In this document: positions 17,364 through 61,311 of the stretch, in pieces
Position numbering within the stretch: the stretch's first letter is position 1
Layout: the number at the start of each line of letters is the position of its first letter
Source of the DNA: OCS155 cluster bacterium AG-333-G23
Lineage (GTDB): Bacteria; Actinomycetota; Acidimicrobiia; Actinomarinales; Actinomarinaceae
Direction: 5' to 3'
Length of the DNA stretch: 64,000 bases
Assembly (NCBI GenBank): GCA_003282445.1
Contig: QBZE01000003.1
Location: 11,455 to 75,454, forward strand
The notes under the pieces: generated by a model
Told to the model about the DNA's origin: nothing
What the model saw: only the letters and a program-made list of their open reading frames with translations
Databases searched by the model: none
Program-made: the position numbers and the translations under genes

Positions 17364-17704
17364 TGGTGGAGGTGCGGGGAGTCGAACCCCGGTCCTTTTA
17401 AGCTATCAAACAGCTTCTCCGAGTGCATCTGGTGTAATACTATTGAGAAAGTCACCAGAACCTATATCTCAATAGTTTCTACCTTAAAACTTAAAAGTTA
17501 GTCGGTAGCCTAACTTCGCATCCCACATTTCAACGCCGATACTATCCGAGGTGGGAACCCCGATAGTCGACGAGTCGCAATTAAGCGGCTATAGCCAATT
17601 TAGGTTTGGCAGTTATATTTTTTTTCCTACGTTTTTAACGAGGCCCTAGGTCCCTCGACTCGCTACTGAGAGACTCACTTCAAAGTCGAAGCCAGTTCAC
17701 CCCC
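17364..17704 (-). ncRNA. ssrA: tmRNA (SsrA), one-piece, CCA encoded
   Basis: On the minus strand the 5' end is GGGGGTGAACTGGCTTCGAC and the 3' end is GGGGTTCGACTCCCCGCACCTCCACCA, the canonical tRNA-Ala-like ends. It contains an internal tag ORF. It is one of the few GC-rich stretches in an AT-rich background. Confidence 0.95.
17581..17610 (-). other. Predicted tmRNA tag reading frame AKPKLAIAA-stop
   Basis: Minus strand reads ...AAAAAAAATATAACT GCC AAA CCT AAA TTG GCT ATA GCC GCT TAA. The A-rich leader, GCC resume codon and hydrophobic ..AA C-terminus are typical of SsrA tags. The resume codon was assigned by eye. Confidence 0.6.
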
Positions 17705-18405: not shown

Positions 18406-18821
18406 GGCCGGATCATAGAATTTAATTTACTCACTTCTATAACCCACAACTCTCTATCTTTGATTCCTGCCTCATCCCAAGAAACATCATCTTCTCTTGC
18501 ATATGGATGGCTGGTATATCTTTGAGATAGCTTATCTATATGTTGATTTGCACTCTCATCTTCAATAATCTCAATCACTTTTCCCCTGGCTTCCCAACTT
18601 GAATACATTGCAGATGGTTCAAAAATTACTAATGTAATTAAATTATTGTTTCTAATATTTGAAGTTTTTTTTCTTCCTTTTTCTGTATTGATAAGCAAAA
18701 AATCATCTTTATAATCTATCCACATTAAATGATTTTGAATTTCATTATTTTCTAAATATGTAGCGATTGAACAAAATGCATTATTTTCAATAGCCTTTTT
18801 TAATTCCAAAGTTAGTTGCAT
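18381..18821 (-). CDS. Pyridoxamine 5'-phosphate oxidase-fold (PPOX-class, possibly F420/FMN-dependent) protein
   Basis: The pattern FCSIAT...G.....MW.......L.INT..GR.K..NI..N....L....P.....S.....G resembles the split-barrel PPOX family. ATG at 18821 is preferred over the track's TTG at 18839. Confidence 0.6.
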   Translation of the reverse strand: MQLTLELKKAIENNAFCSIATYLENNEIQNHLMWIDYKDDFLLINTEKGRKKTSNIRNNNLITLVIFEPSAMYSSWEARGKVIEIIEDESANQHIDKLSQRYTSHPYAREDDVSWDEAGIKDRELWVIEVSKLNSMIRPQAKSDPE

Positions 18822-18851
18822 ATTATTAATTTTAAGCAAAAATAATTAAAT

Positions 18852-19424
18852 ATGGCTTTTATAAAAATCTTTAACTTTGAAGAGTCTTCTGGTCTCTTAA
18901 AAAAAGAATATGAAAAAGGAATGCGGAGAGCTGGAAGGATTTGGAAAATTCTAAGTATCCAATCTCAAACACCTCAAATACTTCAAGACTCAATGAGGTT
19001 GTACGGCTCAACTATGTTTGGTAATTCAAAATTGACTAGGTTTGACAGAGAGTTGCTAGCTGTAGTAACTTCTATTTCCAATGAATGTGAATACTGAATA
19101 ACTGCACACCTATATGATCTCCGGTCGGAGACAAAAGATCAAAAACTCATAGACGATGTAGCTAATGATTGGAAAAATAGTTCATTATCTGAAAAACATA
19201 TGGAGTTATGCAAGTTTGCAGAAAAATTAACAATGACACCAGGAAAAATGAATAAAAAAGATATCGAATCACTAAAAGCTTTTGATTTTACTGAATCAGA
19301 AATTTCAGAAATAGTCCAAGTTGTCTCTTATTTTAATTACATCAATAGAGTAGCTGATGGCCTAGGGCTAGAACCAGAAGAATTCATTGATAAATTAGGC
19401 TATAAAAAAAATATTGATGAATAA
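18852..19424 (+). CDS. AhpD/carboxymuconolactone-decarboxylase-family peroxidase-related protein with an in-frame TGA at 19095..19097. Either a candidate selenocysteine codon or a nonsense pseudogene.
   Basis: Track ORFs 18852..19097 and 19200..19424 share one frame, and codons 19098..19199 are open. The joined 190-aa product reads ...LLAVVTSISNECEY[TGA]ITAHLYDL...LSEKHMELCKFAEKLT...ISEIVQVVSYFNYINRVADGLG. The TGA falls at the second Cys of the family's C-x-Y-C-x-x-x-H motif. Confidence 0.65.
19115..19133 (+). promoter_or_regulatory. Candidate bacterial SECIS-like hairpin downstream of the in-frame TGA
   Basis: UG(A)UCUCC-GGUC-GGAGA-CA: 7 bp with a bulged A at 19117 and apical loop GGUC at 19123..19126, beginning 26 nt after the UGA. 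It is a local GC-rich patch in an AT-rich gene. Confidence 0.45.
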
Positions 19425-19448
19425 TTAAGAATCTCTAACATAGTTTTA

Positions 19449-20381
19449 GTGGAAAAAAGAAAAACATTATTACTTTTTAATATTTTAATATTTACATTTC
19501 TTTCTATATTTGTGCTGTCCGAAAAGCTAAATATCTCAGGAAATACAATAATCAATAATAATGAAGAGATTATTGCAGTAGATAACTCAGTGGATATTCC
19601 TGACAATGAAAAAGTAATTACCAACATTACAACAACAACTGTTCCATCTTTGCAAGACAGTTACGAAGAAGAAATGCAAACAAATATCAACTTTAAACTA
19701 CCTGATAGTGACGGTGTTGATATTTATACATCAAAGATCTCAATTTATTCAACTGAAGAACAAACGATTCTAAGTAAGATAATTCCCGGGATAAGCCTTG
19801 AACAAGGTTGTGTCATCGAAAATATTAATGAGACAGATAATCAATGGATTAATGTGCTTGAAGCTAATGTTTACAACGAAGAGAAGATTAATTTTTCTCT
19901 ATCAGTTGAATCAAGCTTACCAATCGATGCTTATTGTCTCTCAAACTTTATTACTTCAATATTAAATGATAAGCGTGGATGGACAACAATAGTTGGAAAA
20001 GAGTTTCAAGTTGTTAATTATTATGATGCCGACTTTCATATTTTCCTTGCTAACCCAAATACTGTTGATGAGATGTGTTTTCCTTTACAAACAAATGGTA
20101 TTTACTCATGTCGAAATGGAAATCAAATAATCTACAACTACTTTAGATGGCTTGCTGGTGCAAAAGATTTTGGACTTGATATAGCTACTTATAGACTTTA
20201 TCTCATTAATCATGAAGTAGGACATATGTTTGGCTGGGGACACACTGATTGTCCATCACAAAATGCTCTTGCGCCATTAATGATGCAACAGTCAAAAACT
20301 ACTGGTGGGTGTATACCAAATGGATGGCCGATATATGAAAGAATTACTTACTTATACGAATCTGTTGATAATTTTAAATAG
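19449..20381 (+). CDS. Secreted or membrane-anchored DUF3152-like zinc metalloprotease-motif protein
   Basis: N-terminal hydrophobic anchor. RGW...F.V and the YRLYLINHEVGHMFGWGHTDCP...APLMMQQS motif (HExxHxxGxxH) match the actinobacterial DUF3152 pattern as I remember it. Confidence 0.7.
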   Translation: MEKRKTLLLFNILIFTFLSIFVLSEKLNISGNTIINNNEEIIAVDNSVDIPDNEKVITNITTTTVPSLQDSYEEEMQTNINFKLPDSDGVDIYTSKISIYSTEEQTILSKIIPGISLEQGCVIENINETDNQWINVLEANVYNEEKINFSLSVESSLPIDAYCLSNFITSILNDKRGWTTIVGKEFQVVNYYDADFHIFLANPNTVDEMCFPLQTNGIYSCRNGNQIIYNYFRWLAGAKDFGLDIATYRLYLINHEVGHMFGWGHTDCPSQNALAPLMMQQSKTTGGCIPNGWPIYERITYLYESVDNFK

Positions 20382-22904: not shown

Positions 22905-23339
22905 TTATTTATAATCTCTAATCTCTTTAGAAACCCTTTTCTCCTCTATCTTCTTTCTTTTATCGTAGTCTTTTTTCCCTTTTGCTAAAGCAACTTCTAC
23001 TTTAATAAATCCATTTTTTTCAAATACTTTTGTTGCTATTAAAGTATTTCCCTTTGTTGAGGTCAGTCCTATTAATCTTTTAATTTCTTTTTTGTGTAAC
23101 AACATCTTTCTTGGAGTCTTTGGGTCATAATCAACTAAATCTGCATATTTATATGGTTCAATATTCATTTCTCTAAGAATTGCTTCTTCATTCTCAATGA
23201 TTGCAAAAGCATCAATGATTGAAACTCCGCCATTACGTATACTTTTTGTTTCTGGGCCAGTTAAAACAATCCCAGCTTCAAAGTATTCTAGAAACTCATA
23301 AGAGTTTTTAGCTTTTGAATTTTGAGCAAAAACTTTCAT
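22905..23339 (-). CDS. smpB: SsrA-binding protein
   Basis: N.KA...YE....FEAGIVL.G.E.KS(I/L)R.G..S(I/L).D(A/S)(F/Y) is the conserved SmpB N-terminus, with a basic C-terminal tail. Confidence 0.93.
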   Translation of the reverse strand: MKVFAQNSKAKNSYEFLEYFEAGIVLTGPETKSIRNGGVSIIDAFAIIENEEAILREMNIEPYKYADLVDYDPKTPRKMLLHKKEIKRLIGLTSTKGNTLIATKVFEKNGFIKVEVALAKGKKDYDKRKKIEEKRVSKEIRDYK

Positions 23340-25596: not shown

Positions 25597-26274
25597 CTAA
25601 ATATACCTACCTTCGGCTGCATCACTTACAAGTTTTCCATCTTTAAGTTGAAGAACTCTCTTCTTCCTTCTGTTTACAATTGATGAATCGTGTGTAGCCA
25701 TTAATACTGTTGTTCCTGCCCTATTAATTTTTTCAAGTAGAGTAACAATCTGAATACTTAAGTTTGGATCTAAATTTCCAGTGGGTTCATCACACAACAA
25801 TAGTAAAGGGTTGCTGGCTAGTGCTCTGGCTATGCTTACCCTCGTTTGTTCTCCCCCAGATAACTGATGAGGAAACTTAAAGATACTTTCTTCAAGTTCT
25901 ACTAGTTCTATTAAAGTGTTTGTTTTTTCTTCTATATCTTTAGATTCATATCCCAGTATCTCTAATGCAAAAGTTATATTTTCAAAAGTTGTTCTATCTT
26001 CTAATAATTGGGGTTCTTGAGTTACTATTCCAAGCTTCCTTCTCAGAATTGGTATTTTCCATTTAGGTAGAGAGGTAACATCCATGTCAACAACTTCTAA
26101 ACTACCTTTTGTTGCAAAATGTTCTTTATATAGCAACTTAAGAAAAGATGATTTTCCACTTCCTGATGGTCCAATTAAATAGACAAATTCTCCCTCGGAT
26201 ATTGAAGTAGACACATTTGACAATGCAACACTTCCACCTTGGAAAACCAATGAAACATTTTCTAATTTAATCAT
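25597..26274 (-). CDS. ftsE: Cell division ATP-binding protein FtsE
   Basis: Walker A GPSGSGKSS, signature LSGGEQTRV, Walker B LLLCDEPTGNLD. 225 aa. Confidence 0.93.
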   Translation of the reverse strand: MIKLENVSLVFQGGSVALSNVSTSISEGEFVYLIGPSGSGKSSFLKLLYKEHFATKGSLEVVDMDVTSLPKWKIPILRRKLGIVTQEPQLLEDRTTFENITFALEILGYESKDIEEKTNTLIELVELEESIFKFPHQLSGGEQTRVSIARALASNPLLLLCDEPTGNLDPNLSIQIVTLLEKINRAGTTVLMATHDSSIVNRRKKRVLQLKDGKLVSDAAEGRYI

Positions 26275-27371
26275 TTAACCCCTGTCTACGCCATTTTAGA
26301 TACTCTTTTATAAAAATGGAAATATCGCCATCCAATACAGATTGGATATTTCCTACTTCAATACTAGTTCTAGCATCTTTTACTTGTTGATAAGGTTGCA
26401 TAACATAAGAACGAATTTGTCTTCCCCAGCCTGCTTCTACTTGTTCTCCTCTGATATCGTCTAATTTTTTTAATTGTTCTTCTCTTTCCAATAATGTAAT
26501 TTTTGATTTTAATAAATCTAAAGCTCTAACCTTATTTTGCAATTGTGACCTTTCAGCTTGGCACGCAACTACTATCCCCGTTGGAATATGTGTAATTCTG
26601 ACTGCTGAGTCTGTTGTGTTGACATGCTGACCTCCAGCACCAGATGATCTATAAACGTCTACTCTTATTTCATCATCTTTTATATTCACTTCGTCAGAAT
26701 TTTCAATTAAAGGAACTACATCTATTCCAGCAAAACTTGTATGACGTCTTTTATTACTGTCGAAAGGACTTATCCTTACGAGTCTATGTACTCCTCTTTC
26801 GCTTTCTAAAAGACCGTACGCGCGATAAGACTTTACCCTAATTGAAACTGATTTTATTCCTGCCTCCTCACCACTTGAAATTTCTTCAATTTCATAATCC
26901 ATATTTTCATTATCAAGAAATCTCGTATACATTCTAAATAGAATATCTGCCCAATCATGAGCATCAACACCACCTGCTCCAGCATTAATATTTAGAACAG
27001 CACTTAAATTATCGTATTCACCATTAAATAAGGATTCTTCTTCTAGAACTGCTAGTTTGGTCTCAAAATCTTTTATCTGAATTTTCACCTCTTCTAATTC
27101 AGAAATTTCGTCTTTGCTTAATTCAATTAATTCATTTAAATCATTTAAATCATTCTCTAGCTTATTTAATAAACTGATAACTTTTTCTATTGACGAGGCC
27201 TCTTTGGTAATAGTTTTTGCATCTTTGTTACTAGACCAAAAATCTTTATCTGATATTAATGAGTTAAGCTCTTTTAATTTTTTTGTTTTCGAATCAAAGT
27301 CAAAGATACTCCTTAGCTGAAGCAAGTCTTTCAAGAAGTTTTTCCAAACGGTTTAATAATTCTTTATACAT
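26267..27371 (-). CDS. prfB: Peptide chain release factor 2, expressed via a programmed +1 frameshift
   Basis: Frame 0: ATG at 27371, MYKELLNRLEKLLERLASAKEYL, then TGA at 27302..27300. The +1 frame continues DFDSKTKKLKEL...SPF...GGQHVNTTDSAVRITH (SPF and GGQ motifs). The track ORF 26267..27334 is only the +1-frame part. Confidence 0.93.
27299..27314 (-). promoter_or_regulatory. prfB +1 frameshift site: internal Shine-Dalgarno plus CUU UGA C
   Basis: Minus strand reads AAG GAG TAT CTT TGA C. The E. coli prfB site, as I remember it, is AGG GGG UAU CUU UGA C. Confidence 0.9.
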
Positions 27372-55042: not shown

Positions 55043-56671
55043 TTAAACAGAGGCAAAAGAATCTTTTGCGTGATATGAAGATCTTACTAAAGGACCAGAT
55101 TCAATATGTGGAATACCAAATTTTTCACCAATTAATTTATATTCATCAAACTCATCTTGTGTTACATATCTGTGAATTGGTCTATGTTTAGATGTAGGTC
55201 TTAAATACTGACCTATTGTGACAATATCAATATCTATTTGGGATACATCTTTCAAAACTGCTATTACTTCATCAAATTCTTCACCCATACCAACAATTAG
55301 TCCCGTTTTAGTTTTTCCAGAAAAATTAACTTCTTTGGCATATTGAAGAAGAGAGAGTGACCTACCATAAGAAGCAGCTGTTCTTATTTCCCTCTGAAGT
55401 CTGGGGACAGTTTCTAGATTGTGATTTAACACTTCTGGTGCTTCATTAATTATGTTATCAATTGCTCTCCTGTCTCCTTTGAAATCAGGAATTAAAACTT
55501 CTACTGATGTTGAAGGGTTCATTAATTTAATTTCTTGAATGGTTTTTGCAAAAAATTCTGAACCTCCATCCTCAAGATCATCTCTGTTAACGGAAGTTAC
55601 TACAGCATGAGTGAGTTTCATCGTTTTAACACTTTCAGCAACTCTCAATGGTTCTAGCTCATCTAGGTCAGAAGGCTTTCCTGTGTTAACATCACAAAAA
55701 CCACAAGCTCTTGTACAAGTATCTCCCATGATCATAAAAGTTGCAGTGCCCATAGACCAACATTCATATATATTTGGACATGAAGCTTCCTCACAAACAG
55801 TGTTTAGTTTTTTTTCATTTATTAAATTTTTTAATTCAATATATTCAGAGCCAAGATTTGCCTTAACCTTCATCCATTCAGGTCTTTTAGGTTCTCCTGG
55901 TAATAATCCTTTTATTGTTACTGGTATTACATTCTTATTTTTATTAAAAACTCCTCTATCAACCATTTCATCAATTTCATATTTTTTTTCTTTCTTAAGT
56001 TGAGTTGGTGTAAATTGAGATAATTGACTATCAATAATCTCGTAATTAAAATTTCTTGAAAACTCTTTTGAGACCTCATTAACAATATCCTTAAATGAAA
56101 CCTCTCTATTAAAAGAGTGTACAGATGAAATCTTTTCATCTGAATTACCACAAGGATTAATCAAATCAAATCCATTCAAATCTTCAAAAATATTTAGAGA
56201 AAATCCATGATAAGTAGTCCATTTGCTGACTTTTATTCCAATTGAAGCAATCTTTCCTTTACTTGTCCAAACCCCTGTGTCCTCTTCTTTTGAATAAGAA
56301 TCTATATTAAAAGCTGCTAAAGCATTGATGATTGATTTTTCAATAGTTCTAACAAATGGAATAACTTTTTTTGGATCAGATAACCTAATTATTGGATAGC
56401 CAATAAGTTGCCCTTTACCATGAAAAGTTATATCTCCTCCTCTATCTGTTTCAAAATACTCTATTCCAAGATTGTCTAGCTTTTCTTTATTAGCGATAAG
56501 ATTATCTTTATCTCCTGATCGTCCGAGAGTGATGACGTTGTTGTGTTCTAATAGAAGTAAATAATCTTCTTCATTGTTACCATCAGAAACTGAATTATGA
56601 AGCCCTTTTTGAAGTGTTAATGCCTCCGCATATGGAAGGTTTCCAAGCCATCTTATGTTTAAAGCTCTCAA
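55043..56671 (-). CDS. lipB-lipA: Fused octanoyltransferase LipB / lipoyl synthase LipA
   Basis: One 542-aa ORF. N-terminal LipB motifs RGGDITFHGKGQLIGYPI, KIASIGIKV and NPCG. C-terminal LipA motifs CEEASCPNIYECW and CTRACGFCDV (radical SAM). Confidence 0.9.
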   Translation of the reverse strand: MRALNIRWLGNLPYAEALTLQKGLHNSVSDGNNEEDYLLLLEHNNVITLGRSGDKDNLIANKEKLDNLGIEYFETDRGGDITFHGKGQLIGYPIIRLSDPKKVIPFVRTIEKSIINALAAFNIDSYSKEEDTGVWTSKGKIASIGIKVSKWTTYHGFSLNIFEDLNGFDLINPCGNSDEKISSVHSFNREVSFKDIVNEVSKEFSRNFNYEIIDSQLSQFTPTQLKKEKKYEIDEMVDRGVFNKNKNVIPVTIKGLLPGEPKRPEWMKVKANLGSEYIELKNLINEKKLNTVCEEASCPNIYECWSMGTATFMIMGDTCTRACGFCDVNTGKPSDLDELEPLRVAESVKTMKLTHAVVTSVNRDDLEDGGSEFFAKTIQEIKLMNPSTSVEVLIPDFKGDRRAIDNIINEAPEVLNHNLETVPRLQREIRTAASYGRSLSLLQYAKEVNFSGKTKTGLIVGMGEEFDEVIAVLKDVSQIDIDIVTIGQYLRPTSKHRPIHRYVTQDEFDEYKLIGEKFGIPHIESGPLVRSSYHAKDSFASV

Positions 56672-57936
56672 CTAATTTCTCCTGACCAATCATGATTTTC
56701 CAGTTTGTCTTTAATTGCGTTTAAAAACAATAAAGCAGTTGAGCCATCAAAAACTCTGTGGTCCCAAGTTAAACTCAAAATTCCAGAATGTCTTATCTCA
56801 ATTGAATCCTCATCCTCTTCAGACTCAACTACTACTGCCTTCTTTTTTACTGACTCTGTAGACAGAATTGCAACATTAGGTTGATTAATAATAGGAGAAG
56901 TTAAAAAAGAATTAAAAGACCCATTATTTGAAATTGTAAATGTACTTCCTGAAACATCTTCAAGAGAAAAGTTTTTTTCTCTTAATTTTTGAGATAATGA
57001 AGTAATTTCTCTTGCTAGCGCTTTAACATCATATGAATCAGATTCTTTAATTGTTCCAACTAGTAATCCTTCTTGATTTATATCAACAGCAATCCCTAAA
57101 TCAATATTTGAATGTATGGTATGTGATTCTTGATCTAAATCGAAAGAACTGTTTACAACAGGGTATTTCTTTAAAGCACCTACGGTTGCATTAGCTATAA
57201 AAGGAAGATAGGTTAATGAAAATCCTTCATCTTTCTTGAAAGCTTCTTTTATTTCAGTCCTTAGTTGTGATATTTTCTCATAATCAACTTCAATTGTTGT
57301 CATTACGTGAGCAGAAGTTTGTTTTGATCTAACCATATTTTCAGCAATCTTTTTTCTTAATCTTGGTATAGATTCACCGGTACTTTTAGTTGAAGATACA
57401 GGCTTTTCAGCAACAGGTTCCTTAACTACTTTTTCTTCACTGGGTCTTTCTCCAGTTGCTATATAAGACTCAATATCTTTTCTTGTAATTCTTCCATCCT
57501 TTCCAGTTCCATTCAAAGAACTAGGATTTAGATTATTTTTACTCAATAACTTTCTAACAACGGGAGAAAGTTTTTGATCAGAATCACTTTCTACAACTAC
57601 AGAACTTACTTCTTCGCCTGTTTCATTTTCTACTATTTCTGGTTCTTCTTGTATCTCAGGCTCCGGAACTTCACTGGGTGTTTCAACTATATCTTGAGAA
57701 TCTCCATCAAGTTCAAGTAAATTTGCTCCAACAGCTACTGTCTCTCCTTCTTCTACAAGTAATGCTGTTACCGTTCCGCTAAATGGAGAGGGAACCTCGG
57801 TATCTACTTTGTCTGTTGAAATTTCTAAAATTGGATCATCTTCACTTACAACATCTCCTGCTTTAACTAGCCAACTTAGTACAGTGCCTTCTGTAACTGT
57901 CTCTCCAAGTTGTGGCATTGTTATGATTTTGCTCAT
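56668..57936 (-). CDS. Dihydrolipoamide acyltransferase (E2) of a 2-oxoacid dehydrogenase complex
   Basis: Lipoyl domain (ISTDKVDTEVPS), peripheral subunit-binding domain (SPVVRKLL...GTGKDGRITRKD), and catalytic DHRVFDG. Confidence 0.93.
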   Translation of the reverse strand: MSKIITMPQLGETVTEGTVLSWLVKAGDVVSEDDPILEISTDKVDTEVPSPFSGTVTALLVEEGETVAVGANLLELDGDSQDIVETPSEVPEPEIQEEPEIVENETGEEVSSVVVESDSDQKLSPVVRKLLSKNNLNPSSLNGTGKDGRITRKDIESYIATGERPSEEKVVKEPVAEKPVSSTKSTGESIPRLRKKIAENMVRSKQTSAHVMTTIEVDYEKISQLRTEIKEAFKKDEGFSLTYLPFIANATVGALKKYPVVNSSFDLDQESHTIHSNIDLGIAVDINQEGLLVGTIKESDSYDVKALAREITSLSQKLREKNFSLEDVSGSTFTISNNGSFNSFLTSPIINQPNVAILSTESVKKKAVVVESEEDEDSIEIRHSGILSLTWDHRVFDGSTALLFLNAIKDKLENHDWSGEIS

Positions 57937-57940
57937 TATG

Positions 57941-59947
57941 TTATTGTAATTCTTTGATAGCTTTTATTAAATTCTCTGCACTAGGAATAAAAGCATCTTC
58001 CAGTATTGGTGCAAATGGGATATGAGTATTAGGTGATGTAACTTTTATAATTGGATTATCTAAATTCCAAAAACCTTTTTCAGCTACTACTGAAGAAACT
58101 TCAGAAGCTATAGATGAAAAAGGGACATCTTCCTGTAGGATTACCAAGTTTGATGTTTTTTCAATAGACTTCAAAATTATCTCTTCATCTAATGGGAAAA
58201 TTGTCCTTAAATCAACTATCTCAACTGAGATATTATCTTTTTTTAATTCCTCAGCAGCTTCAATCGCTGTTGGCACCATTCCTGACCAAGCAACAACTGT
58301 AACGTCATCTCCTGTTTTAACAACTTTTCCTTTACCTAGTTCTACTTCATATAAACCTAGAGGAACATCCATTTTTAAATCTGGTTTTCTATACAACTTT
58401 TTATGTTCAAGATACATAACTGGGTTTGGATCAAAAATTGAAGCAACTAATAATCCTTTTGCATCATATGGATTAGAAGGAGCAACAACCTTAATTCCTG
58501 GGTGATGTGCTAACAATGACTCTGGACTAATTGAGTGAAATGGACCAGAACGAGTCCCTGCTCCAGTAGGACCCCTGACTACCAAAGGAACTGCTTTCCC
58601 TGCTTTCCAATAATATTTAGCTGCTTCTGTAGTGATCTGATCTAACGCTGGGTAAACAAAATCAAAAAACTGTAACTCAATGACAGGTTTTTTTCCCGCT
58701 AATGCTGCCCCAACTCCAGCTCCCATGAAGCCACCTTCCGATATTGGGGTATCTAGAACTCTTGATTCTCCATATTTTTCAAATAATCCCTTTGTAGCTT
58801 TAAATGCTCCTTCAAAAATACCTATATCTTCACCCATCATGAAAATATCTTCATCTTTCTCCATTGCTTCATCTAATCCATTATTTATTGCTTCAATAAA
58901 ATTCATTGTTTCACTATTTGATTCATCATTTGTAAACACCGGAGTCGTACGAGTAGCAAACATATCATCAATTTCTTCATCAGGATTGGGGTCATCTTGT
59001 TCTTTTGCCCAATCAATTGTAGTTTTAATCTCTTTCTCAATTTCTTCTGATAGTGTCTCAAAATCACTATTAGTAAATAGGCCTTCTTCAAGTAAGGCAT
59101 CTTCAAATCTTGTTATTGGATCTCTTTTTATCCAAAATTCTCTTACCTCATCTTCAACGTACTCAGCAGGGTCATGTCCTGCATGCCCATGATGTCTAAA
59201 TGTAACAAGCTCAATTAGGCTAGGCCCATCGTTATTACTTGCTTTCTCGCAAGCGTCGTGCATTGTGTCTATTACTTGATAAATATCATTGCCATCTATA
59301 ATTTTTGATTCTATGCCGTAGCCTGCTCCTCTATCCGCAACATTAGGTGTGCCAAATTCAACTTCATTCGGAGAGGAATAAGCGAATTGATTATTCTGTA
59401 CAGTAAAAACAATAGGTAAATTATGAACGCCTGCCATGTTTATACTTTCATGCCAGGTTCCAGTAGCAGTAGCTCCTTCTCCACAATTGGCAATTGCAAC
59501 CACGCCGCTGTTAGATTGCTGTGAAGCTAAAGCCCATCCAACCGCAACAGGTGCTGAGTCAGGCAGTGGAGAAACTACCATTAATGTTCCTTTATCTACA
59601 ACTCCAAAATGGCTATTTCCATCCCTACCTTTAGAGGGTCCATGTTTCTTTCCAAAGAAATTTAAGCATATTTCCTCTAAAGAAACTCCTCTCATCATTT
59701 GAACACCTAAATCCCTGTGTGTTCCACCAAATATATCATCTTTTCCCATACCAGCTCCAATTCCAGCCATTGAAGCTTCCTGGCCTATTCCTGGATATAC
59801 AGCACCAGAGAGTTGTCCCCCCTTATAAAGCTTTAATAATCTTTCTTCAAGAAGCCGCTGGGTTTTCATTGATTTGTATATCTCCCAAAGTTCTTCTTTG
59901 TTTAAACTCTTTGAGTAGCCTTTTCTTTTTATTGTTTCAATCTCCAT
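57941..59947 (-). CDS. Fused E1 alpha-beta component of a TPP-dependent 2-oxoacid dehydrogenase
   Basis: 668 aa. The N-terminal half has alpha-subunit features (GQEA, the TPP motif CGEGATATGTWHESINMA). The C-terminal half has beta-subunit features (MNFIEAINNGL...GEDIG..GAFKATKGL...RVLDTPISE). Confidence 0.9.
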   Translation of the reverse strand: MEIETIKRKGYSKSLNKEELWEIYKSMKTQRLLEERLLKLYKGGQLSGAVYPGIGQEASMAGIGAGMGKDDIFGGTHRDLGVQMMRGVSLEEICLNFFGKKHGPSKGRDGNSHFGVVDKGTLMVVSPLPDSAPVAVGWALASQQSNSGVVAIANCGEGATATGTWHESINMAGVHNLPIVFTVQNNQFAYSSPNEVEFGTPNVADRGAGYGIESKIIDGNDIYQVIDTMHDACEKASNNDGPSLIELVTFRHHGHAGHDPAEYVEDEVREFWIKRDPITRFEDALLEEGLFTNSDFETLSEEIEKEIKTTIDWAKEQDDPNPDEEIDDMFATRTTPVFTNDESNSETMNFIEAINNGLDEAMEKDEDIFMMGEDIGIFEGAFKATKGLFEKYGESRVLDTPISEGGFMGAGVGAALAGKKPVIELQFFDFVYPALDQITTEAAKYYWKAGKAVPLVVRGPTGAGTRSGPFHSISPESLLAHHPGIKVVAPSNPYDAKGLLVASIFDPNPVMYLEHKKLYRKPDLKMDVPLGLYEVELGKGKVVKTGDDVTVVAWSGMVPTAIEAAEELKKDNISVEIVDLRTIFPLDEEIILKSIEKTSNLVILQEDVPFSSIASEVSSVVAEKGFWNLDNPIIKVTSPNTHIPFAPILEDAFIPSAENLIKAIKELQ

Positions 59948-61311
59948 TAATGCAAACCTTTCCCGCTTAGAGACATGAGTGATTCTCCTATAGCTTCACT
60001 TAATGTTGGGTGAGCATGAATAAATTCTGCAGCTTCACTAGGAAGAGCTTCCCATCCAACCATATACATTAACTCATGTATTAGCTCTCCTGCACTTGGA
60101 CCGCATACACTTGCGCCAACGATAGGGCCATTTTCCTCTGCATAAACTTTAACGATTCCTTGGTTTTGGTTTTGTATTAAAGCCCTTCCCACGCCGACAA
60201 AACTATGCTGAGACTGGGAAATATTGAGCTCATTTACTTTTGCTTTTTCAGAGTTTGTACCTACTTCAGCTAGCTCTGGATTTGTATATACAACATATGG
60301 AATTGCTGAATAATTTACAGGGCTTTTCTCGCCAGTAGCAATATGTGTAATTGCAGAGATTGCTTCTGCAAAAGCTACATGAGCTAACTGTGGAGAGTCT
60401 TTTACTATGTCACCTAATGCATAGATATTATCAGTAGAAGTTTGCATAGTTTCAAGATCTACATTTATAAATCCATTTTCATTTGATATCCCAACATTAT
60501 CCAGGCCAATATTCTGAGTAAAAGGTTGTCGGCCGATAGCAACCAAGACAGAGTCAAAATTTTCTTTTTCTCCGTCTGAAAAAACTATTTCATTATTACT
60601 GGTGCTTTCTATGGAAGTTTTTAATTTAAAATTTACGCCTCTTTTTGTTAATTGTTTTCTTAATTCTGCAGATGTTCTCTTGTCTAAACCGGGAAGAATT
60701 TCATCTTCTAACTCAACAACAGTAACTTCTGAATCAAGATCGATAAGTAAACTTGCAAATTCACATCCAATTGCTCCTGCACCAACTATACAAACTTTTT
60801 TTGGTGGCTCGTCCCAGTTCAATGCTGTATCTGAATTTATTATGAAATTATTATCAAACTCTAAATTAGGTAGGCTTCTTGGCTGAGAACCAGTAGCTAA
60901 GAGGACGTAATCTGAAGCAATCTTTTCTTCTTCTCCATTTTCTTTTTTAACAATTACAACATTTTTTGACTCTATCTGTCCCCATCCCTCAATGACATTT
61001 ACTTTTTTACTTTTTAATAAAGTCCCTATCCCTGAAACTAATTTGTTAACTATCTCGTTTCTTTTATTTGTTGTATTTGCCCAATTAATATTTTTTTGAT
61101 TTATTTCTATTCCGTAGTCATTGGCATTCTCAATTTCATGATTCAGTTCAGCAACATGTAACCAGTATTTTGCAGGGATGCATCCTCTATTTAAACAAGT
61201 ACCACCTAAAACATCAGACTCTATAAGTGTTACGTCTAAATCGAAATTATTAGCATATAAAGCAGCCGCATAACCTGCGGGGCCACCGCCAATTATCGTT
61301 ATTTTTTTCAA
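59947..61311 (-). CDS. lpd: Dihydrolipoyl dehydrogenase (E3)
   Basis: GGGPAGY FAD fold, redox-active disulfide GGTCLNRGCIPAK, C-terminal HAHPTLSE. Confidence 0.95.
   Translation of the reverse strand: MKKITIIGGGPAGYAAALYANNFDLDVTLIESDVLGGTCLNRGCIPAKYWLHVAELNHEIENANDYGIEINQKNINWANTTNKRNEIVNKLVSGIGTLLKSKKVNVIEGWGQIESKNVVIVKKENGEEEKIASDYVLLATGSQPRSLPNLEFDNNFIINSDTALNWDEPPKKVCIVGAGAIGCEFASLLIDLDSEVTVVELEDEILPGLDKRTSAELRKQLTKRGVNFKLKTSIESTSNNEIVFSDGEKENFDSVLVAIGRQPFTQNIGLDNVGISNENGFINVDLETMQTSTDNIYALGDIVKDSPQLAHVAFAEAISAITHIATGEKSPVNYSAIPYVVYTNPELAEVGTNSEKAKVNELNISQSQHSFVGVGRALIQNQNQGIVKVYAEENGPIVGASVCGPSAGELIHELMYMVGWEALPSEAAEFIHAHPTLSEAIGESLMSLSGKGLH

Follow-up and report, generated by a model that had tools for sequence, protein, structure and literature searches.

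In the fdhF gene of Escherichia coli, the selenocysteine insertion sequence (SECIS) is a hairpin inside that gene's open reading frame (ORF), soon after the UGA that encodes selenocysteine (Sec). Its minimal element comprises nucleotides (nt) 15-31 and lies 11 nt from the UGA; the key positions are the bulged U17, G23 and U24, and SelB contacts U17 and G23 (PMC8659212). A general rule for bacterial SECIS (bSECIS) elements places the apical loop 16-37 nt from the UGA (PMC10778597). A related system has been described from the ocean. A 2005 Sargasso Sea study gives 27 sequences of an AhpD-like CxxU family (COG2128), with a predicted SECIS in a figure (PMC1088965), and the Global Ocean Sampling (GOS) study of 2008 gives 299 sequences in 37 samples, fourth among the marine selenoprotein families (PMC2398784). 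We describe here a hairpin at positions 19115-19133 (+) of a 64,000-nt stretch of DNA from OCS155 cluster bacterium AG-333-G23 (the whole stretch is hereafter referred to as the window). This hairpin is very probably the bSECIS of an AhpD-like (TIGR01926, CxxU) selenoprotein gene of Candidatus Actinomarina.

Among free-living bacteria of the sea, Actinomarina rank with the smallest and the most abundant. According to a preprint of 2026, each of the 84 complete Actinomarina genomes (~1.1 Mb) carries selC, selA, selD and a divergent selB, with about five predicted selenoproteins per genome; with Rfam models, the preprint found no SECIS. AhpD or peroxidase-related proteins are not mentioned in the available part of its text, and its supplement lists where selA, selC and selD lie, but not the selenoprotein sequences. 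The AhpD-like selenoprotein family and its SECIS type are already known from the ocean metagenomes of 2005 and 2008, and knowledge of how bacterial SECIS elements work is unaltered by this locus. What may be new is that the family is assigned to Actinomarina, that a lineage for which the recent preprint found no SECIS gains an explicit one, and that a SECIS which is embedded in, and shapes, a conserved protein motif is described family-wide. AhpD-like 1, which ranks among the ocean's commonest selenoprotein families, would now be tied to Actinomarina, and the locus would give this lineage a concrete SECIS, validated by comparison.

The in-frame UGA of the AhpD-like gene

A frame of 190 codons at 18852-19424 (+) is broken only by a TGA at 19095-19097 (codon 82). 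With Cys put at codon 82, the protein matches the NCBIfam model TIGR01926 "peroxidase-related enzyme" with 129.2 bits (cut-off 81.8), and it also matches Pfam CMD. The active-site motif reads C79-E-Y-U82-I-T-A-H86, that is, CxxU(C)xxxH. The nearest solved structure is that of an AhpD protein (6k40); because its CVYC...H aligns with C79-E-Y-[UGA]-I-T-A-H86, the UGA takes the place of the second Cys of the AhpD CxxC...H motif. The gene product thus resembles the proteins of the AhpD/CMD fold (PDB 6k40, 2oyo and 2prr; TIGR01926) in fold family and in active-site spacing, C-x-x-C/U-x-x-x-H, and differs from those with CxxC, in which the second position is Cys and no recoding signal is required. 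The score for the NCBIfam model NF041238, AhpD_rel_CFYUT (seleno)protein, was 56.7 bits, below the cut-off of 175; only the C-terminal half of this model, which is 357 long, is matched.

The window uses the standard code, with dense coding and long ORFs. TGA is the normal stop of 12 of its 50 ORFs, and prfB, the gene for release factor 2 (RF2), lies within it at 26267-27334 (-). When both strands of the window were scanned for TGA-split ORFs as a sign of a second selenoprotein gene, only the AhpD-like gene was credible.

A scan for orthologues, with one genome per species, yielded 22 loci (L001-L022) with 71-96% amino acid identity, which make up a set of 23 sequences with the gene of the window. 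Nineteen of these loci are labelled Candidatus Actinomarina or OCS155 cluster; the others are from an Actinomycetota bacterium (L001), Acidimicrobiia LRMED-058 (Ca. Actinomarina sp.; L005) and an Acidimicrobiaceae bacterium (L020). All 22 have TGA at codon 82. Among the 23 sequences, conservation by codon position follows the order second > first > third, alike upstream of the UGA and immediately downstream of it. Another in-frame ATG does not occur until 35 codons past the UGA. This coding pattern on both sides, taken with the distance to the next ATG, argues that translation continues through the UGA.

Gene callers that use the standard code split the gene at the UGA. In a public protein catalogue (P0001-P0043), the protein occurs as fragments, either an 81-residue N-terminal part or a C-terminal part from an internal Met, or else at full length with Trp at codon 82. 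The Trp at the Sec position is an artefact, because gene callers translated TGA under code 4. Since some of the clusters have 500-650 member sequences, this mis-annotation is widespread, and entries with W at the Sec position or in two fragments represent an annotation error worth fixing.

Another way to explain continued translation is that the hairpin promotes read-through of the UGA by a standard tRNA (a near-cognate Trp or Cys tRNA), or sets a programmed choice between stop and read-through, with no selenocysteine involved. The amino acid inserted at codon 82 is deduced rather than seen directly, the Sec machinery is not encoded in the window, and public gene callers do give W at this codon, albeit through the code 4 artefact. 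Nonetheless, we regard this explanation as very unlikely. The UGA coincides exactly with the catalytic Cys of CxxC...H, a site at which no residue but Cys or Sec functions; the AhpD-like family is an established selenoprotein family, in a lineage reported to carry selA/B/C/D; and UGA is an ordinary stop in a window that encodes RF2.

Structure and conservation of the hairpin

The hairpin, UGAUCUCCGGUCGGAGACA at 19115-19133 (+), contains the pairs U19115-A19133 and G19116-C19132, a bulged A19117, and then five pairs (19118-19122/19127-19131) that close the loop GGUC. It begins at the 18th nt after the UGA, and its loop begins at +26, with 25 nt between the UGA and the loop, a distance within the bSECIS range. 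Its G+C content is 58%, as compared with 31% for the gene. The initial annotation of this DNA had proposed these pairs, the GGUC loop at 19123-19126 and both distances, had remarked on the unusual composition, and had quoted the 16-37 nt rule; all of this was borne out. The features are as follows.

18852-19424 (+): AhpD-like/TIGR01926 peroxidase-related selenoprotein gene; 190 codons and TAA, with the UGA at codon 82 presumed to be read through
19086-19088 (+): codon of Cys79, the first residue of the CxxU redox motif; unchanged in the 23 orthologues and equal to the C of CxxU in all Sec forms
19095-19097 (+): in-frame UGA, the putative selenocysteine codon 82; this codon is TGA in 23/23 sequences from Actinomarina and in 79/80 from metagenomic relatives
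19098-19114 (+): spacer of 17 nt between UGA and hairpin; encodes I-T-A-H-L-Y, with the active-site His86 at 19107-19109
19115-19117 (+): 5' side of the putative lower stem (U19115, G19116) and the proposed bulged A19117; RNAalifold consensus, no covariation
19118-19122 (+): 5' arm of the upper stem, UCUCC; its partner is 19127-19131
19123-19126 (+): apical tetraloop GGUC, a putative SelB contact; invariant in 23/23, and the same loop as G22-C25 of E. coli fdhF
19127-19131 (+): 3' arm of the upper stem, GGAGA; invariant in 23/23, including the third positions of TCG and GAG
19132-19133 (+): 3' side of the putative lower stem (C19132, A19133); A19133 occupies a fourfold-degenerate site, the third base of Thr ACA, and is still 23/23

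With both strands counted, the window contains a single five-pair stem that closes a GGTC loop, as against an average of 1.7 in shuffled sequences; the hairpin alone is therefore not above chance. From the same shuffle test, the chance of such a hairpin lying 26 nt past the only credible in-frame TGA would be roughly 3e-4. What is remarkable about the hairpin is its position and conservation, not its existence alone.

Conservation is evident among the 23 Actinomarina sequences. Pairs of them share a median of 75% of their nucleotides, and third codon positions are free to vary; nevertheless, 19116-19133 is almost invariant, and no other stretch of the gene has as long a run of unchanged nucleotides as 19122-19133. 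Third-position identity, taken over six codons at a time, peaks at codons 89-94. The runner-up, codons 24-31 (18921-18944, M-R-R-A-G-R-I-W), scores 0.93 as compared with 0.94 for the hairpin, and its conservation is partly due to residues with a single codon (M, W) and to a strong preference for AGA. In the hairpin, CGG, TCG, GAG and CTC/CTT are each used in 23 of 23 sequences, although elsewhere in these genes CGG accounts for 1% of Arg codons, TCG for 5% of Ser, GAG for 19% of Glu and CTC/CTT for 24% of Leu; Thr ACA is likewise 23/23 in the hairpin, as against 47% of Thr codons elsewhere. As to the few changes seen, C19121 is replaced by U in seven orthologues, which turns C-G into the compatible U-G; U19118 is C in L002, a C-A mismatch with A19131; and L003 and L004 have C instead of U19115, so that the lowest pair is broken.

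RNAalifold, applied to the 23 orthologues, gave exactly the structure of the initial annotation, with 98% of alignment cells paired; A19117 is bulged on the 5' side in this consensus fold, and the two pairs beneath it show no covariation, one of them being broken in 2/23. With ViennaRNA, the energy of the hairpin structure is -6.9 kcal/mol, which ranks it second among the suboptimal folds of its 51-nt context. An outer stem, 19115-19120/19136-19141, was considered and dropped: 79% of its cells pair, as compared with 98% for the hairpin helix, and it was rejected because its 3' arm is not conserved.

A metagenome scan that used an alignment of the distant forms recovered 80 further loci (L023-L102), of which 79 have TGA and one has TGC at the aligned codon. 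A protein search gave the distant Sec-type motif as C-x-Y-[TGA]-x-x-[AS]-H-x-x-D-L-R-A-E-V. The 79 distant UGA orthologues, with a G+C content of 63%, carry the hairpin at identical columns (22-39 after the U of UGA), and there are no indels between UGA and hairpin in any of the 102 Sec-form sequences; UGA and hairpin are thus conserved together across phyla. The main distant form is GAC CUC CGK GCN GAG GUC (K is G or U; N is any nucleotide), with the stem GACCUC/GAGGUC and a six-nt loop. A form with Ser UCG, GACCUCC-GGUC-GGAGGUC, has the same tetraloop as Actinomarina.

Codon choice in the distant hairpins is biased in the same manner. CTC makes up 77/78 of the Leu codons (background 44%), CGG or CGT 78/79 of the Arg codons (41%), GAG 77/78 of the Glu codons (70%) and GTC 59/64 of the Val codons (45%), while CGC is found in 1/79 (45%). 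The third base in the loop (columns 28-33 region) is G or U and almost never C. For the loop codon itself, GCG is used for Ala in 2/57, as compared with 38% of Ala codons elsewhere in those genes, and UCG for Ser in 9/9. Because GCG is avoided while Ser is always UCG, the closing pair C28-G33 seems to be tolerated solely when the tetraloop is GGUC, as opposed to GGGC or GUGC.

The pair between columns 24 and 37 (U19118-A19131 in the window) provides the covariation. Column 24 holds the last base of the Asp codon, and column 37 the base that opens the codon after Glu. In the 102 sequences this pair is C-G in 66, U-A in 31, U-G in four and C-A in one, with the C-G state in 66/79 of the distant orthologues and the U-A state in several unrelated sequence contexts: GAC is paired with Val GUC, and GAU with Ile AUC or Thr ACA. 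C-A does not occur at this pair in the non-Actinomarina set (Fisher p = 3e-9, a value that, like the binomial ones, treats related sequences as independent). Over the alignment of 102 sequences, 98.9% of cells pair; the observed paired fraction and covariation score were reached in 0 of 500 shuffles, and pairing falls to 42-57% when the partner is slid by 1-3 columns. Compensatory change in TGA-containing metagenomic orthologues, suggested at the outset as a check, was therefore found, in the form of one stem pair that switches between C-G and U-A in several lineages. The same annotation had expected RNA-level constraint because it took DLRSET for a poorly conserved stretch. The expectation was right and its ground was wrong: DLRSET is invariant in Actinomarina, DLR[AS]E is near-invariant in the Sec forms and L-R is also present in the Cys homologue 6k40, so that it is codon choice and the Asp/Val-Ile-Thr covariation, not amino acid variability, that reveal the constraint.

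This conservation of the protein raises the question of whether the inverted repeat is a mere by-product of a motif, D-L-R-x-E-V/T, whose common codons happen to be complementary (GAC/GUC, CUC/GAG), with no function as RNA. Relatives with Cys in place of Sec serve as a control. They share ~50% identity and the motif S-T-R-Y-C-T-x-A-H-W-H-D-[YF]-R-[DE]-E-V, with TGC aligned to the UGA; the control set comprises seven genes (L042, L103, L104, L109-L112) with the same G+C content as the distant Sec forms. At the hairpin site they encode D-[YF]-R-[DE]-E-V, with TAT, TAC or TTC codons at the second residue and AGG besides CGG for Arg. Their mean hairpin energy is -6.0 kcal/mol, as compared with -10.5 kcal/mol for 79 Sec forms; a weak hairpin persists because the GAC/GUC and GAR (R is A or G) pairings come with the conserved D...E-V. 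Thus the Cys forms speak for a by-product in that they keep a weak hairpin, and against it in that they have Y or F for L, D or E for A/S, and a weaker stem. Codon fixation goes with the UGA, and so do the residues L and A/S. Given its small size, the control is supportive rather than decisive. Further evidence speaks against a by-product: the rare CGG, TCG and GAG are fixed in all 23 sequences of a gene with 31% G+C, CGC is avoided in the high-GC hairpins though it is common elsewhere in those genes, and a synonymous Asp third base covaries with the first base of the Val, Ile or Thr codon. A by-product without RNA function is therefore highly improbable. If the hairpin is a SECIS, as we believe, the locus is a clean case of an RNA signal shaping a protein, in that whether Val, Ile or Thr follows Glu covaries with the synonymous choice of Asp codon, and that L and A/S stand in the Sec forms where Y/F and D/E stand in the Cys forms.

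A further explanation holds that the gene is split or dead, that translation genuinely stops at the UGA, and that the hairpin serves as a terminator, as an attenuator or, in the DNA, as a palindrome bound by protein. TCTCC-GGTC-GGAGA is indeed a perfect inverted repeat in DNA as well, and standard-code callers do split the gene here. We give this explanation almost no credence. No T-run follows the hairpin, whose tail is A-rich, and a terminator scan of 18600-19600 returned no terminator-like site; a promoter scan returned four promoter-like consensus matches (shuffle mean 5.6), none of which overlaps the hairpin. In-frame coding conservation extends past the UGA in 23 genomes, with the active-site His86 four codons later, and the arrangement of UGA and hairpin is kept across phyla. 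Moreover, among cells that are not Watson-Crick pairs, G-U on the sense strand outnumbers C-A by 13 to 2, and this excess points to RNA made from the + strand rather than to a DNA palindrome.

Comparison with known elements and the proposed recoding

The fdhF element is among the closest known systems. A 47-mer of fdhF (TGACACGGCCCATCGGTTGCAGGTCTGCACC...) is 100% identical in the fdhF of 5420/5426 complete E. coli genomes, and its nt 15-31, counted from the U of UGA, are GGUUGCAGGUCUGCACC, which folds as GG-U-UGCA-GGUC-UGCA-CC. The apical loop of fdhF is therefore GGUC, as the initial annotation had stated. Like fdhF, the Actinomarina gene has a hairpin inside the ORF soon after the Sec UGA, an identical apical GGUC tetraloop, and a short G+C-rich stem with what may be two more pairs under a single 5'-side bulged base. 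In fdhF the bulged base is U17; its putative counterpart in Actinomarina would be an A, with no covariation behind it. The two also differ in the upper stem (five pairs in Actinomarina, four in fdhF), in the distance from the UGA to the minihelix (17 nt and 11 nt, respectively) and in the position of the loop G (nt 29 and nt 22, respectively). In addition, Actinomarina lacks a conserved lower helix that reaches back to the UGA, and the host is an actinobacterium whose SelB is reported to be divergent.

The marine 'AhpD-like (1)' family (PMC1088965, PMC2398784) is another close system, with the same protein family, CxxU motif and habitat. Its SECIS, as described in the available parts of the two papers, is likewise a stem-loop past the UGA with a G in a small apical loop; those parts contain no assignment to Actinomarina, no family-wide register, no codon fixation and no Asp/Val-Ile-Thr covariation.

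The high-GC orthologues (L023-L102) share with Actinomarina the UGA codon, columns 22-39 and the core CUC...GAG, and some of them share the GGUC loop. Unlike Actinomarina, most have a perfect six-bp stem, GACCUC/GAGGUC, with a six-nt loop, CGKGCN, and no bulge. Where the high-GC orthologues have Val GUC or Ile AUC, Actinomarina has Thr ACA, and this perfect stem thereby loses its two lowest pairs; the same replacement shifts the lower stem by one nt and allows G19116-C19132 and U19115-A19133 with A19117 bulged, a layout similar to that of fdhF. This fdhF-like lower stem with its putative bulged A is the least certain feature of the element. It is conceivable, though we consider it rather doubtful, that the Actinomarina element is a re-registered form of the family SECIS, in which Thr ACA, in place of Val GUC or Ile AUC, turned an ancestral perfect stem of 6-7 bp into an fdhF-like apex (GGUC, a five-bp stem, a 5' bulged purine and two lower pairs), and that this form co-evolved with the divergent SelB into a recognition code common to the ~five selenoprotein genes of each genome.

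If the hairpin acts as a bSECIS, the following sequence of events may be envisaged. As a ribosome nears codon 82, SelB, loaded with GTP and Sec-tRNA(Sec), would use its C-terminal winged-helix domains to bind the hairpin at its apex, that is, the GGUC loop on the five-pair G+C-rich stem, possibly with the 5' bulged A. Binding would tether the ternary complex at the mRNA entrance, and the UGA in the A site would be decoded as selenocysteine in competition with RF2, to give a product with a Cys79-x-x-Sec82...His86 redox centre. The hairpin is accommodated within the conserved protein motif D-L-R-S-E-T through complementary codons, namely GAU/ACA, CUC/GAG and CGG/UCG.

Several observations weigh against the assignment of the hairpin as a bSECIS. 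With regard to the machinery, selA, selB and selD are neither among the 50 NCBIfam-annotated ORFs of the window nor in the fetched loci, tRNA-Sec was not found by tRNA scans of the window, L001-L022 and L113, and the presence of the Sec machinery in the host rests on a single preprint (2026). With regard to the RNA, none of the Rfam SECIS families (RF00031, RF01988-RF01991) is matched at the gathering score, nor at E <= 10 on 19000-19250; the Rfam matches of the window are a tmRNA and tRNA-Gln only, to which a lax threshold added two chance snoRNA matches. The minimum free energy fold of the single sequence, at -7.7 kcal/mol, contains the outer stem 19115-19120/19136-19141 instead of the hairpin, so that thermodynamic folding, another of the checks first suggested, goes against the hairpin for the single sequence (-6.9 vs -7.7) and favors it in the RNAalifold consensus; local fold stability is unremarkable for the composition (z = -1.2). 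Within Actinomarina, no two-sided compensatory change occurs, only the one-sided change from C-G to U-G; neither the bulge nor the lower stem is supported by covariation; and over the seven pairs, 3/23 sequences (L002, L003, L004) have one C-A mismatch each. Pairing comes partly free with the protein motif, through the complementary codons GAC/GUC and CUC/GAG, and the Cys forms retain a weaker hairpin. Lastly, one of the two patterns used in the metagenome scan (DLRAE-based) came from Sec forms; as the patterns were back-translated degenerately, codon choice should not be biased by it.

Variant loci and neighboring genes

Two metagenomic lineages have an Arg sense codon at the Sec position: CGA in L105 (844-846), and AGA in L106 (1244-1246), L107 and L108, each of these three from a separate sample. 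In L105-L108, the surrounding motif is C-x-Y-R-T-x-A-H, and the hairpin, GAC CUC CGG GCY GAG GUC (Y is C or U), is kept eight codons downstream. These loci represent either a recent inactivating change from Sec to Arg or natural recoding of a sense codon to Sec, a phenomenon reviewed in PMC10778597; the retention of the hairpin could indicate such recoding in those organisms. The same gene as in L106 is also present on the 9.2-kb contig L113, where a tRNA scan found no tRNA gene. In L045 (1783-1785), on a 195-kb metagenomic contig, an in-frame TAG lies 13 codons past the UGA, right after the hairpin, at a codon that is CAG in the near-identical L051; it could reflect a pseudogene, an assembly error or something else.

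Immediately upstream of the Cys-form genes L103, L104 and L109-L112 is a gene for a 2-oxoacid dehydrogenase E2 (Biotin_lipoyl/E3_binding/2-oxoacid_dh), and a Peptidase_S10 gene overlaps with them at its start. In mycobacteria, AhpD is linked to lipoamide through DlaT/Lpd, and the E2-adjacent position of these Cys-form genes echoes that link. In the window, the E2 gene (56668-57936) and lpd (59947-61311) are ~37 kb from the selenoprotein gene.

Upstream of the selenoprotein gene, the best promoter-like match is TTGATA-16-TATAAT (11/12) at 18688-18715 (+), ~137 nt before the ATG. The gene for transfer-messenger RNA (tmRNA; tag AKPKLAIAA) lies 1.15 kb upstream, at 17364-17704 (-), and smpB lies 3.5 kb downstream, at 22905-23339 (-). 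The tmRNA is ~1.15 kb upstream of the selenoprotein gene in every Actinomarina locus long enough to show it, and residue 7 of its tag varies among these loci (I, L or V).

Many bacteria have a programmed +1 frameshift site in prfB. The prfB of the window (26267-27334, -) is one unbroken ORF of 355 residues that covers model positions 7-353, apparently without such a site. Two other ORFs of the window appear to be fusions: a single ORF at 55043-56671 (-) combines LipB (residues 3-213) and LipA (262-540), and another at 57941-59947 (-) combines the alpha (9-335) and beta (348-667) parts of pyruvate dehydrogenase E1.

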